Program-made: the position numbers and the translations under genes
Shown: piece by piece, positions 26,633 to 31,292 of the stretch
Numbering within the stretch: the stretch's first letter is position 1
Layout of the letters: each line of letters starts with the position of its first letter
Notes under the pieces: model-generated
Told to the model about the DNA's origin: nothing
What the model saw: only the letters and a program-made list of their open reading frames with translations
The model's database searches: none
From: Escherichia phage UP19
Sequence record: OX638288
Direction: 5' to 3' (one strand)
Length of the DNA stretch: 64,000 nt

Positions 26633-27754
<1,122 letters not shown>

Positions 27755-27755
<1 letters not shown>

Positions 27756-28615
27756 TGAAACAATACCAATTTTTAATTAAAGATATCCTGGAAAATGGCT
27801 ACGAAACCGACGACCGTACCGGCACCGGTACAATTGCACTGTTCGGTACTAAATTACGTTTTGATTTAACTAAAGGCTTTCCTGCAGTAACAACTAAAAA
27901 ATTAGCATGGAAAGCCTGCATTGCTGAGCTCCTTTGGTTCCTTTCGGGTTCAACAAACGTTAACGACCTTCGTTTACGTACTCACGGTTCATTAATTGGT
28001 GGTAAAACTATTTGGGACGAGAATTATGAAAATCAGGCCAAAGATTTAGGTTATCATAGCGGTGAACTCGGTCCTGTATATGGGAAACAATGGCGAGATT
28101 TTGGTGGTGTCGACCAGGTTGTAGAAATCATCGACCGTATTAAAAAGATGCCTAATGACCGACGTCAAATCGTATCTGCATGGAACCCGGCTGAAATCAA
28201 CCAGATGGCTCTTCCACCATGTCATTGTTTTTATCAGTTCAACGTTCGTAACGGCCATCTTGACCTCCAGTGGTACCAACGTTCTGTTGACGTGTTCTTA
28301 GGATTACCATTTAATATCGCCTCTTACGCCGCTCTTGTGCATATTGTAGCTAAGATGTGTAATCTTATTCCTGGCGATTTAGTGTTCTCAGGCGGCAATA
28401 CGCACATCTATTCTAACCACGTTGAACAATGCCAGGAAGTTCTTCGTCGTGAACCTAAAGAACTGTGTGAACTGGAAATTAATTGGCCTGAAGGATTCTC
28501 TGATTGGAGCACGACATTACAGCTTCATTGGGTAACAGAGCATATGGTCCATGAAGATTTTAAACTCATTGGTTACGAATCACACCCTACCATTAAGGCT
28601 AAAATGGCTGTATGA
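27755..28615 (+). CDS. td: thymidylate synthase, uninterrupted (no intron)
   Basis: 286 aa from MKQYQ...; ThyA active-site region ..ALPPCH.FYQF..; single continuous ORF (ORF track starts at TTG 27743). Confidence 0.9.
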
Positions 28616-28676
28616 AAATTCAAATAATCTGTACTCTGTTTTTGGTTATTATGGTCGGACTGAATTTGGTGCTATA

Positions 28677-28970
28677 ATGAGAGTCTGTAGAGTTGTTAAC
28701 AAGTATAAAGAAGATTTTGATGTCAATATCCAGCGTGGAACCATGTGGGGTAATCCATTTAAAGATGGTACCCGCGAGGAAAACATCAAGAACTTTAAAG
28801 AATACTTTATTGCTAAAATAAAATCGGGTGAAATTAAAAGAGAACACCTTGAAACCCTTAGAGGTATGCGAATAGCGTGTACCTGTAAACCTAAGGACTG
28901 TCATGGGGATGTGATAGCCCTGGTTGTTAACAAACTTTTCAAAGATACGTTCTCATTAGAAGACCTATAA
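28677..28970 (+). CDS. DUF4326-like small protein
   Basis: ...WGNPF...C.C.P..CHGDV... motif pattern; start uncertain (ORF 28551 overlaps td). Confidence 0.5.
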   Translation: MRVCRVVNKYKEDFDVNIQRGTMWGNPFKDGTREENIKNFKEYFIAKIKSGEIKREHLETLRGMRIACTCKPKDCHGDVIALVVNKLFKDTFSLEDL

Positions 28971-29036
28971 ATATCAGTCCATGCTTAACAGGTTCTATGT
29001 TATTATAGATGTAGAACCTAACATATTGAGGAAATT

Positions 29037-31292
29037 ATGCAAGTACAAAAGAGTAGTGGTGTATCCCAAGATTTTGACGCACAAAAAATTATTAAAGTTC
29101 TGACTTGGGGCTGTGAAGGAACCCAAATCGACCCCTATGAATTATACGAAGAAATCAAAACCCACCTTCGTGATGGTATGACTACCAAAGATATCCAAAA
29201 TCTGACTGTTAAGGTAGCGGCCAACCTTATCTCGGTTGAAGAGCCTGACTATCAGTATGTTGCTGCAAAGCAATTGATGTTTGCACTGCGTAAAGAAGTT
29301 TACGGTCAGTTTGAACCACGTAGTTTTATCGACCATATTTCCTATTGTGTTAACGAAGGTAAATATGACCCTGAGTTGTTATCTCGTTACTCTGCAGAAG
29401 AAATTACTTTCTTAGAATCCCATATTAAGCATGAACGTGATTTCGAATTGACCTATGCAGGTGCGATGCAGCTTAAAGAGAAATATCTGGTTAAAGATAA
29501 AACCACCGGTAAAATCTATGAAACTCCTCAGTTCGCTATCATGTGTATTGGTATGGCCTTACACCAAGATGAGCCAGGTAACCGTTTAGCACATATTATT
29601 CGTTTTTATGACGCTGTAAGTACTCGACAGGTTTCGTTGCCTACTCCTATTATGGCTGGAGCACGTACACCGACTCGTCAATTTAGTTCTTGTGTGGTTA
29701 TTGAAGCTGGCGACTCACTGAAATCTATTAACAAAACTGCGAACTCGATAATTGAATACATTTCTAAACGTGCAGGTATTGGTATCAACGTTGGTATGAT
29801 TCGTGCTGAAGGTTCTCGTATTGGCATGGGTGAAGTCAAACATACCGGTGTTATTCCATTCTGGAAGCATTTCCAGACTGCTGTTAAATCATGTTCACAA
29901 GGTGGAATCCGTGGCGGCGCTGCTACTGCTTATTATCCTATTTGGCATTTGGAAGTTGAAAATCTGCTCGTTCTGAAAAACAACAAGGGTGTCGATGAAA
30001 ACCGTATCCGTCATATGGACTACGGAATCCAGTTGAATGACCTTATGATGGAACGTTTCGGTAAGAATGATTACATCACGCTGTTCAGTCCTCATGAAAT
30101 GGGCGGTGAGCTTTATTATTCTTATTTCGAAGACCAAGAACGTTTCCGTGAATTGTATGAAGCTGCTGAAAAAGACCCTAGTATTCGTAAGAAACGTATT
30201 AAAGCACGCGACCTCTTCGAATTGTTTATGACCGAACGTTCAGGCACTGCACGAATTTATCCACAGTTCGTTGATAACACCAACAACTTTACGCCATTTA
30301 TTCGTGAGAAAGCTCCTATTCGTCAGAGCAACTTGTGTTGTGAAATTGCTATCCCAACTACCGATGTTAACAGTCCGGACGCTGAAATTGGGTTGTGTAC
30401 GCTGTCTGCATTCGTGTTGGATAACTTTGATTGGCAAGACCAAGACAAAATCAATGAGCTGGCTGAAGTACAGGTACGTGCACTTGATAACCTGTTAGAT
30501 TATCAAAGCTATCCTGTTCCTGAAGCTCTGAAGGCTAAAAAGCGTCGTAACTTGGGTGTCGGCGTTACTAACTACGCAGCATGGCTGGCAAGCAACTTTG
30601 CTTCTTATGAAGATGCTAACGATTTAACTCATGAACTGTTTGAGAGATTACAATATGGACTTATCCGAGCATCAATCAAATTGGCCGAAGAAAAAGGACC
30701 TTGCGAGTATTATTCAGACACTAAGTGGTCTCGAGGCGAATTACCTATCGACTGGTACAATAAAAAGATTGACCAAATCGCGGCCCCAAACTATGTTTGT
30801 GACTGGTCGGCGTTGCGGGAAGACTTGTCTAAACATGGCATCCGTAATAGCACATTATCAGCACTTATGCCATGCGAGTCAAGCAGCCAAGTTTCCAACT
30901 CTACCAACGGTATCGAACCTCCGCGCGGCCCGGTAAGTATTAAAGAATCTAAAGAAGGTAACTTCCGACAGGTAGTTCCTAATGTAGAACATAACCAAGG
31001 CCTTTATGATTACGCTTGGAGCCTCGCTAAGAAAGGTAATAAACCTTATCTTACCCAAGTAGCAATTATGTTGAAATGGGTTTGCCAATCAGCATCAGCG
31101 AATACGTATTACGACCCTCAGAACTATGAGAAAGGAAAAGTTCCTATGTCAGTAATGCTTGATGACCTGTTATATTTCTGGTACTTTGGTGGTAAGAACC
31201 TTTACTATCATAACACCCGTGACGGCTCTGGTACCGACGATTATGAAATCGAAACTCCTAAAGCCGATGATTGTGCAGCTTGTAAGCTTTAA
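29037..31292 (+). CDS. nrdA: ribonucleotide reductase class Ia alpha subunit
   Basis: 751 aa; N-terminal ATP-cone, catalytic cysteines, C-terminal CxxC tail. Confidence 0.95.
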   Translation: MQVQKSSGVSQDFDAQKIIKVLTWGCEGTQIDPYELYEEIKTHLRDGMTTKDIQNLTVKVAANLISVEEPDYQYVAAKQLMFALRKEVYGQFEPRSFIDHISYCVNEGKYDPELLSRYSAEEITFLESHIKHERDFELTYAGAMQLKEKYLVKDKTTGKIYETPQFAIMCIGMALHQDEPGNRLAHIIRFYDAVSTRQVSLPTPIMAGARTPTRQFSSCVVIEAGDSLKSINKTANSIIEYISKRAGIGINVGMIRAEGSRIGMGEVKHTGVIPFWKHFQTAVKSCSQGGIRGGAATAYYPIWHLEVENLLVLKNNKGVDENRIRHMDYGIQLNDLMMERFGKNDYITLFSPHEMGGELYYSYFEDQERFRELYEAAEKDPSIRKKRIKARDLFELFMTERSGTARIYPQFVDNTNNFTPFIREKAPIRQSNLCCEIAIPTTDVNSPDAEIGLCTLSAFVLDNFDWQDQDKINELAEVQVRALDNLLDYQSYPVPEALKAKKRRNLGVGVTNYAAWLASNFASYEDANDLTHELFERLQYGLIRASIKLAEEKGPCEYYSDTKWSRGELPIDWYNKKIDQIAAPNYVCDWSALREDLSKHGIRNSTLSALMPCESSSQVSNSTNGIEPPRGPVSIKESKEGNFRQVVPNVEHNQGLYDYAWSLAKKGNKPYLTQVAIMLKWVCQSASANTYYDPQNYEKGKVPMSVMLDDLLYFWYFGGKNLYYHNTRDGSGTDDYEIETPKADDCAACKL

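Follow-up and report, generated by a model that had tools for sequence, protein, structure and literature searches.

Between the td and nrdA genes, the stretch of Escherichia phage UP19 DNA analysed here (64,000 nucleotides; sequence record OX638288; hereafter referred to as the window) contains a small open reading frame, which raises the questions at which codon its translation starts, whether the gene has been inserted at this site, and what its product might do. A 701-bp query comprising the locus shared 99% identity with Escherichia phage dhaeg and 90-98% with other Dhakavirus members, and by this similarity the window is assigned to a T4-like coliphage of the genus Dhakavirus (Straboviridae, Tevenvirinae). 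The order of the genes frd, a 68-aa ORF, td, nrdA.1, nrdA, and nrdB (Table 1) is the same in dhaeg, JS98, and fHoEco02. In addition, the dhaeg record contains an annotated CDS at coordinates identical to 28677..28970, the nrdA.1 CDSs of Dhakavirus genomes are 99-100% identical to the window copy, and the gene name nrdA.1 is used in the annotations of Bp7, JS98, and JS10. In fHoEco02, a Tequatrovirus, the CDS in the slot between td and nrdA is annotated as 'NrdA.1, member of DUF4326 superfamily'. Likewise, NrdA.1 of T4, described as an 'uncharacterized 12.4 kDa protein in the nrdA-td intergenic region', and its orthologues in the Tevenvirinae belong to the same DUF4326 family and occupy the same position between td and nrdA. 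The Tequatrovirus copies are 67-68% identical to the window NrdA.1 over 99% of its length; however, their loop reads WGNYV instead of WGNPF, their annotated N-terminus is slightly longer, and, unlike in the window, the gene nrdA.2 is also present upstream. As the Dhakavirus orthologue of T4 nrdA.1, the window ORF lies within the frd-td-nrdA-nrdB deoxynucleotide-synthesis block.

Table 1. Genes and sequence elements at the td-nrdA locus of the window.
Feature	Position	Strand	Basis or remark
frd	26971..27552	+	
68-aa ORF	27549..27755	+	
td	27755..28615	+	
Upstream in-frame extension of the long ORF, overlapping the 3′-end of td, non-coding	28551..28676	+	homologues without extension; codon-position pattern
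GGTG, Shine-Dalgarno-like element 5 nt before the ATG	28668..28671	+	read from sequence
TGCTATAAT, extended -10-like string overlapping the start codon, probably a chance occurrence	28670..28678	+	motif counts; promoter scan
CTATAA direct repeat, left copy	28672..28677	+	alignment with C6, MX01, AnYang, IME08, ABTNLsp5, VR5
nrdA.1 CDS, 97 aa, stand-alone DUF4326 domain	28677..28970	+	Pfam and phrog matches; dhaeg annotation
Codons R20...G25-N26-P27, first conserved loop (after strand 2)	28734..28757	+	conservation over 267 domains
Codons C68-T-C70-K-P72-K-D-C75-H76-G77-D78, invariant Cys/His loop, strand 3 to last helix	28878..28910	+	conservation; AF2 secondary structure
CTATAA direct repeat, right copy, including the TAA stop codon	28965..28970	+	alignment with C6, MX01, AnYang, IME08, ABTNLsp5, VR5
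MotA-box-like TGCTTAA followed by TATTAT 12 nt later, candidate nrdA middle promoter	28982..29006	+	pattern count
nrdA	29037..31292	+	nrdB next in order

The initial annotation had considered the start of the ORF ambiguous and had pointed to a long ORF, 28551..28970, that overlaps the 3′-end of td in another frame. This ORF is present, its frame is open from position 28551 onwards, and the long form is annotated in JS98 as well as in a 139-aa UniProt/BFVD entry. However, the N-termini of virtually all 52 aligned homologues are located within a few residues of the sequence M-x-x-C-x-V-V-N-K-Y, and the upstream extension is missing from the homologues. Moreover, between the td stop codon and position 28676 the differences between the window and JS98 are distributed 6/4/1 over the three codon positions of the long frame, which is the opposite of the pattern of coding sequences and argues that the upstream extension is not coding-like. 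Together with the Shine-Dalgarno-like GGTG 5 nt ahead of it, this sequence evidence settles on the ATG at position 28677 as the predicted translation start; the ambiguity is thereby removed, and the 139-aa long ORF is an artefact.

Likewise, the extended -10-like element that had been noted at the first plausible ATG exists as a string, TGCTATAAT being a perfect extended -10 sequence, but it is no commoner than expected by chance: the window holds 7 copies of the pattern TGNTATAAT, with 4.8 expected, and 23 of 100 shuffled sequences reach 7. No -35 element accompanies TGCTATAAT, and the promoter scan of the + strand returned no site at 28670-28678. The counterpart of the string reads TGTTATAAT in dhaeg and TTCTATAAA at the empty sites described below. 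A transcript initiated from TGCTATAAT would begin within the ORF. With respect to both sequence context and above-chance occurrence, the string at 28670-28678 does not qualify as a sigma-70 extended -10 promoter. In addition, scanning the + strand of the spacer between td and nrdA.1 revealed neither promoter-like nor terminator-like sites, and the corresponding RNA has no match in Rfam and shows nothing unusual in its folding (z = -0.18). In view of these data, it is very improbable that the real product is the 139-aa ORF starting at 28551 or that TGCTATAAT represents a functional promoter with a transcript that starts inside the ORF. Judged from the sequence, nrdA.1 is probably a pre-replicative gene that shares a transcript with td. 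The MotA-box-like element and its associated TATTAT are located downstream of nrdA.1 and do not belong to the expression signals of this gene; the TGCTTAA-TATTAT pattern is enriched in the window (14 observed against 5.5 expected), and the element is retained in filled and empty alleles.

The ORF had originally been attributed to the DUF4326 family owing to a WGNPF...CxCxPxxCHGD signature, an attribution that was to be abandoned if a profile hit was missing or if the ORF was not conserved. The HMM search yielded a strong match to Pfam PF14216 (DUF4326; E = 7.9e-22; score 78.2 bits, with the cut-off at 25), which covers positions 1-81 of the 82 profile positions, and a match to phrog_464 with E = 5.7e-45. 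The 97-aa translation includes the stretches MRVCRVVNKYKEDFDVNIQRGTMWGNPF and RIACTCKPKDCHGDVIALVVNKLF. In an alignment of 52 homologues with 35-88% identity the residues R20, G25, N26, C68, C70, P72, C75, H76, and G77 are invariant. Across 267 DUF4326 domains, R20, N26, C68, C70, P72, C75, H76, and G77, all of which are found in the window protein, are 97-99.6% conserved; the individual values amount to 98% for R20, 96% for G25, 98.5% for N26, and 88% for P27, and to at least 98.5% for each of C68, C70, P72, C75, and H76, and R33 and D78 are likewise 90-98% conserved. The window protein contains every residue of the DUF4326 signature (R20, G25, N26, P27, C68, C70, P72, C75, H76, G77, and D78). 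Both the family assignment and the signature are thus borne out, with a profile match found and the ORF conserved.

When compared with the T4-type orthologue, the nucleotide differences in nrdA.1 are distributed 29/18/59 over the three codon positions, and 40 codon changes are synonymous and 30 non-synonymous. This concentration at third codon positions indicates that the gene is under purifying selection. The identity profile between the window and JS98 is a mosaic, with 99.3% identity in nrdA.1 and 99% in the adjoining start of nrdA, and reveals no unusual conservation of the spacer or of nrdA.1. Beyond the T4-like phages, homologues were detected in 2119 of 50,697 phage records, and a profile search of a 50%-identity library of 1.84 billion representatives yielded 20,305 clusters at E <= 1e-3.

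The comparison with related phages proposed in the initial annotation was carried out as well. The gene is conserved in T4-like genera and is absent from 19 of the 48 Dhakavirus records (~40%), all of which contain an identical empty junction of 43 nt. Removal of GenBank/RefSeq duplicates reduces these 19 records to 14 distinct phages; the remaining 29 records matched only the right half of the junction query, which is common to the filled allele. The filled allele reads ...GAATTT-GGTG-CTATAA-TG...GAC-CTATAA-ATATC..., and the empty allele, present in C6 and others, reads ...GAATTT-CATT-CTATAA-ATATC..., with GGTG replaced by CATT. The single junction common to all empty sites points to one originating event. 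Moreover, variants flanking the site on both sides occur with the filled and the empty allele in all four combinations, which, together with the mosaic identity to JS98, suggests that both alleles circulate by recombination. Since the td-nrdA.1-nrdA slot is common to Tequatrovirus and other T4-like genera, the parsimonious reading of the polymorphism is a deletion between the CTATAA repeats and not an insertion. On the basis of these alignments, nrdA.1 is best read as ancestral and the polymorphism as a loss in some Dhakaviruses, and the earlier description of the gene as 'inserted' between td and nrdA was misleading. The existence of many close relatives without nrdA.1 further implies that these phages can grow without the gene, at least on their isolation hosts, so that it is dispensable there. 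At the empty sites the upstream open frame persists as an ORF of 55 aa, which is labelled nrdA.1 in IME08; this label on a leftover ORF is an annotation artefact.

We then asked what the predicted structure indicates about the protein. The AF2 model, calculated with an alignment of 53 sequences, has a pLDDT of 94.4 and a pTM of 0.86 and comprises strands at residues 5-8, 16-17, and 65-68 and helices at residues 33-50, 55-59, and 76-87, which suggests that NrdA.1 is a minimal three-strand alpha/beta (Rossmann-like) module. In this model the conserved segments are located in the loops following strand 2 and strand 3, the second of which enters the N-terminus of a helix. A Foldseek search against BFVD yielded 25 matches at E <= 1e-3, and nearly all described top matches are DUF4326 proteins; they derive from phages, haloarchaeal viruses, and giant viruses and reach TM-scores of up to 0.85 for non-identical proteins. 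Structure prediction, which had been named as a check of the family assignment, is thus in agreement with it. The Foldseek search of the PDB with the NrdA.1 model returned nothing at E < 1, and the sequence search of the PDB with both the protein and the family profile returned only noise, consisting of the ComFB loop and TPR designs, and no solved relative.

A more distant relationship is suggested by the profiles of the DUF488 families. The DUF4326/DUF488/RapZ-C clade has reportedly been placed in the rhodanese-phosphatase superfamily in the 2023 classification of Burroughs and Aravind. In our analysis, 18 of 53 DUF4326 proteins gave sub-threshold matches to PF22751 ('active DUF488-N3 subclade', DUF488-N3a), the best with E = 2.7e-5 and 24.9 bits (cut-off 27), and in the ten divergent DUF4326 members examined every such match was collinear and located in the C-terminal half of the profile. 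The similarity to DUF488 (E. coli YeaO; PF04343, PF22751), a family of similar domain size, extends collinearly over helix 1, strand 3, the Cys/His loop, and the last helix; however, YeaO lacks the cysteine residues of the DUF4326 loop. The window NrdA.1 itself did not match the DUF488 profiles of Pfam, and hhalign comparisons of the DUF4326 profile were not significant, either with a shallow YeaO profile built from sequences of at least 70% identity (probability 0.4%) or with a single RapZ C-terminal sequence. The collinear PF22751 matches lend modest, independent support from sequence comparison to the published placement alongside DUF488 and RapZ-C, and DUF4326 appears to be distantly related to DUF488 and to the C-terminal domain of RapZ (PDB 5o5s). 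The family has also been assigned to the rhodanese-phosphatase superfamily in a published analysis (PMC9503650).

The proposed membership in this superfamily draws attention to the loop C70-K-P-K-D-C75-H76, which has the spacing of a C-X5-R motif but carries a histidine in place of arginine at position +6 and a proline within. The classical cysteine phosphatases of the rhodanese/PTP superfamily (PTP, DUSP, Cdc25) possess C-X5-R, whereas NrdA.1 lacks the arginine and contains two additional invariant cysteines, and the structural similarity between cysteine-based phosphatases and NrdA.1 is marginal. An identity as a canonical Cys-phosphatase/PTP was rejected, as the loop lacks the arginine at +6 and contains the proline.

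The longer members of the family and the genes surrounding DUF4326 genes provide a further line of evidence. Among 42 longer members, 11 carry an N-terminal SLOG domain (YAcAr in six, mSLOG in three, and DprA-like in two), single cases contain NADAR (one NADAR and one NADAR-DarT1 match), RNase H, Dam, or an RNA-polymerase fragment, and several consist of tandem DUF4326 copies. The SLOG and NADAR fusions reported by Iyer et al. (PMC7824862, PMC9503650) are thereby reproduced in the present set; in contrast to the fused forms described by these authors, the window protein consists of the DUF4326 domain alone. In the neighbourhoods, of which we sampled ~20 contexts, an RNase HII gene lies immediately upstream of the DUF4326 gene in one case, an RNase H gene two genes upstream in another, and DNA polymerase A adjoins it elsewhere. 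In Kuttervirus the DUF4326 gene follows SbcCD, and in phage N4 it is part of the early region. One metagenomic phage contig harbors the cluster NUDIX-NAMPT-...-DUF4326-...-YAcAr-...-PRPP-synthetase-like, which we take to resemble the phage NAD-reconstitution gene sets. The theme shared by these neighbourhoods is early-expressed nucleotide, NAD, and replication metabolism, and there is no single fixed partner. YAcAr domains were found in 1175 phage records by tblastn; neither the matches listed nor the host summaries of this search included a YAcAr-type SLOG partner in T4-like phages. Among defence-related resources, the PADLOC models gave no match to NrdA.1 at E <= 1, and in the EVADES preprint the family comes up solely with amoeba-virus homologues of the anti-Avs protein ORF83, which carry DUF4326 at their C-terminus.

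We tentatively favor the reading, to which we give somewhat less than an even chance, that NrdA.1 is a small enzyme-like module whose target is a ribose-linked phosphate, which it would bind and probably also hydrolyse or transfer. Candidate ligands are small molecules derived from nucleotides or from NAD/ADP-ribose, as well as RNA or DNA termini. C70, or else C68, would be a putative nucleophile within a P-loop-like C-X5-H loop. In the phage the protein would serve as an accessory factor, in nucleotide-pool housekeeping or against host defence, and not as a core enzyme. This reading accords with where the conserved residues lie, with weak links to DUF488, RapZ-C, and phosphatases, and with the partner domains. 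The conserved loops lie at the C-terminal ends of the strands, the usual place of phosphate-binding and active sites, and thus fit a ribose-phosphate ligand. The partners fit as well, because SLOG/LOG-like and NADAR domains make or release ribose-phosphate products and RNase H leaves ribonucleotide-containing ends. In line with this proposal, Iyer et al. (2021, PMC7824862; 2022, PMC9503650) predicted DUF4326 to act on ADP-ribose, or on products of its breakdown, by processing the terminal phosphates of the ribose; the literature searched contained no experimental studies among the papers mentioning the family. Several observations speak against it: the loop contains a proline and not the arginine of C-X5-R, three invariant cysteines together with a histidine are seen more typically in metal sites than in Cys-phosphatases, the window protein matches neither DUF488 nor any PADLOC model, and no YAcAr partner was listed for T4-like phages.

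The alternative that fares best builds on this set of residues. According to it, NrdA.1 would be a non-catalytic binding module stabilised by zinc, with C68, C70, C75, and H76 forming a predicted short structural zinc loop. It would only bind a nucleotide-derived ligand or nucleic acid and act, without any chemistry, as a sensor, sponge, or adaptor, comparable to RapZ-C, which binds a sugar phosphate and an sRNA. The four soft ligands of the CxCx4CH stretch, each at least 99% conserved over the 267 domains, resemble a short zinc loop no less than a catalytic one, and the protein is small and lacks the classical C-X5-R motif. Moreover, weak alignments with ComFB cover exactly this stretch (ACTC..C..DV.AL..NK), with E = 0.9 for PDB 4wai and a sub-threshold E = 0.005 for the NCBIfam ComFB model. 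The crystal structure of ComFB shows zinc held by C25, C27, and C30 of the CTCxxC loop, with a distant cysteine or, depending on the homologue, histidine as the fourth ligand (PMC4381287). However, the ComFB matches are not significant and lie far below any threshold, and despite the local likeness of the loop the overall fold of ComFB differs, being all-helical. In addition, the 90-98% conservation of R20, N26, R33, and D78 suggests that, in addition to any structural metal, there is a polar site for binding or catalysis, and the repeated fusions to the enzymatic partners NADAR, RNase H, Dam, and LOG-like SLOG suit an enzyme at least equally well. A zinc site and catalysis are furthermore not mutually exclusive; a structural zinc is compatible with the enzyme-like module as well as with the non-catalytic explanation. 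We regard a purely binding function as possible but less likely than the enzyme-like reading.

Considerably less probable is a function as an accessory factor of ribonucleotide reductase, in which the three cysteines and the histidine would bind a redox metal or an Fe-S cluster, or act as a dithiol relay, by analogy to the YfaE ferredoxin, NrdH, and NrdI, which serve cellular reductases. The CxC...P..C..H ligand set recalls the 3Cys-1His 2Fe-2S sites of CDGSH proteins. Moreover, the gene adjoins reductase genes in three non-equivalent arrangements, namely td-X-nrdA upstream of nrdA in the Tevenvirinae including the window, nrdA-nrdB-X downstream of nrdB in Slopekvirus, and nrdD-X-nrdG between nrdD and the activase gene in the unrelated jumbo Asteriusvirus BF17. 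The E. coli nrdA-nrdB-yfaE genes have the same layout as those of Slopekvirus. However, the adjacency in T4-like phages is largely inherited synteny, no reductase is located nearby in PAK_P1, Kuttervirus, and ten metagenomic phage contexts, and none is annotated in the 5-kb stretch of phage N4 examined (gp3-gp16). The 19 Dhakavirus records with the empty junction keep nrdA and nrdB in the absence of nrdA.1, and the fusions of the family comprise nucleic-acid- and nucleotide-processing domains but never a reductase or redoxin. A universal link to ribonucleotide reductase was rejected as the main explanation, as most contexts outside the T4-like phages lack a reductase.

At the level of the gene, this analysis reveals nothing new: nrdA.1 is annotated in dozens of near-identical genomes, its Pfam family is named, and a computational prediction of function has been published. 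What is added are a settled start codon, the unremarkable nature of the -10-like string, a deletion allele with a single junction in ~40% of the Dhakavirus records, and the sub-threshold DUF488 matches. It is rather improbable that NrdA.1 represents a new small metallo- or thiol-enzyme acting on a ribose-phosphate compound, or a 3Cys-1His redox cofactor of phage reductases. If the former were true, the substrate would be an immune signal derived from ADP-ribose, an NAD breakdown product generated by host defence NADases, or a ribonucleotide or RNA-primer terminus, and a counter-defence or pool-sanitising activity would be present in ~4% of the phage genome records searched. On such a reading, the filled and empty Dhakavirus alleles would mark differences in host range. 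NrdA.1 lends itself to the study of a domain that is very common in viruses, and the Dhakaviruses offer a clean natural experiment, in which close relatives differ by the precise, single-junction presence or absence of one gene while its flanks otherwise recombine. Thus, a phenotype, such as host range on defence-carrying E. coli or tolerance to nucleotide stress, could be sought with little engineering.

The gene nrdA.1 is absent from 19 of the 48 Dhakavirus records, where exactly this gene is missing between td and nrdA (compared phage loci L002 and L004-L008). All of these nrdA.1-less records share one junction, which is located at a CTATAA direct repeat. At these empty sites, CATT stands in place of the GGTG Shine-Dalgarno sequence. 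When the filled and empty alleles were compared with the sequence variants of the flanks, all four combinations were observed, and therefore we conclude that the alleles move by recombination. Moreover, the divergence between the window and the Dhakavirus relative JS98 across the frd–nrdA region is mosaic. The final 150 bp of td (28471..28620) are only 68% identical to JS98 and a part of frd (27121..27420) shows 73-77% identity, whereas identity rises to 95-99% in the adjoining segments, among them nrdA.1 and the beginning of nrdA.

Features of the frd–nrdA region in the window
Feature	Position	Strand	Remark
68-aa ORF	27549..27755	+	between frd and td; overlaps frd by its start and td by its stop
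td	27755..28615	+	uninterrupted
CTATAA direct repeat copies	28672..28677 and 28965..28970		bound nrdA.1 presence/absence
TATAAATA, T4 late-promoter consensus	28966..28973	+	spans the nrdA.1 stop codon
MotA-box-like TGCTTAA, then TATTAT 12 nt on	28982..29006	+	just upstream of nrdA

Two promoter-like strings are located close to the nrdA.1 stop codon and the nrdA start. The upstream one, TATAAATA, is retained at the empty-site junction, and it could easily have arisen by chance in AT-rich DNA. The pattern of TGCTTAA and TATTAT separated by 12 nt is enriched, with 14 occurrences in the window versus 5.5 expected. Upstream of nrdA, the -10 alleles found among Dhakaviruses, TATTAT or TAGAAT, are placed at the same spacing from the MotA-box-like element.

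The Tequatrovirus fHoEco02 carries a group I intron encoding the I-TevI homing endonuclease inside td, whereas td of the window lacks any interruption. The 68-aa ORF that precedes td gave a full-length match to phrog_9550 (E = 1.3e-43) and no match in Pfam. It is annotated in the Dhakavirus dhaeg as well as in fHoEco02, and missing from the annotations of JS98 and C6, despite JS98 DNA being 98.6% identical at this ORF.

Annotation noise around nrdA.1 was met at L006 393..560, L009 373..768, phrog_24867 and the search hits H28, H82 and H85. JS98 and UniProt annotate long forms of 132/139 aa, and in IME08 the label 'nrdA.1' denotes a 55-aa leftover ORF at the empty site. Furthermore, DUF4326 genes or their neighbours are labelled 'ribonucleotide reductase NrdA-like' or 'thioredoxin', which look like transfers from the gene name nrdA.1.

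Unusual architectures within the DUF4326 family were drawn from the collected proteins P0110, P0111, P0119, P0158, P0172 and P0179. They comprise tandem repeats, with a maximum of three matched stretches in P0110, fusions to RNase H or to a single-subunit RNA polymerase fragment, and a 1411-aa protein in which YAcAr and DUF4326 units each occur twice.

In the jumbo Asteriusvirus BF17, the DUF4326 gene is flanked by nrdD and an nrdG-like gene (L016 2483..2815), and in Slopekvirus it lies immediately 3′ of nrdB (L017 2477..2797). The gene thus neighbours ribonucleotide reductase genes in two additional arrangements that are not equivalent. On a metagenomic phage contig (L020 2303..7647), NUDIX, NAMPT and a small ORF, in this order, precede DUF4326, and YAcAr (SLOG) follows it after two ORFs, with one small ORF separating YAcAr from a PRPP-synthetase-like gene; here, DUF4326 is embedded in a cluster of the NAD-salvage or NAD-reconstitution type.
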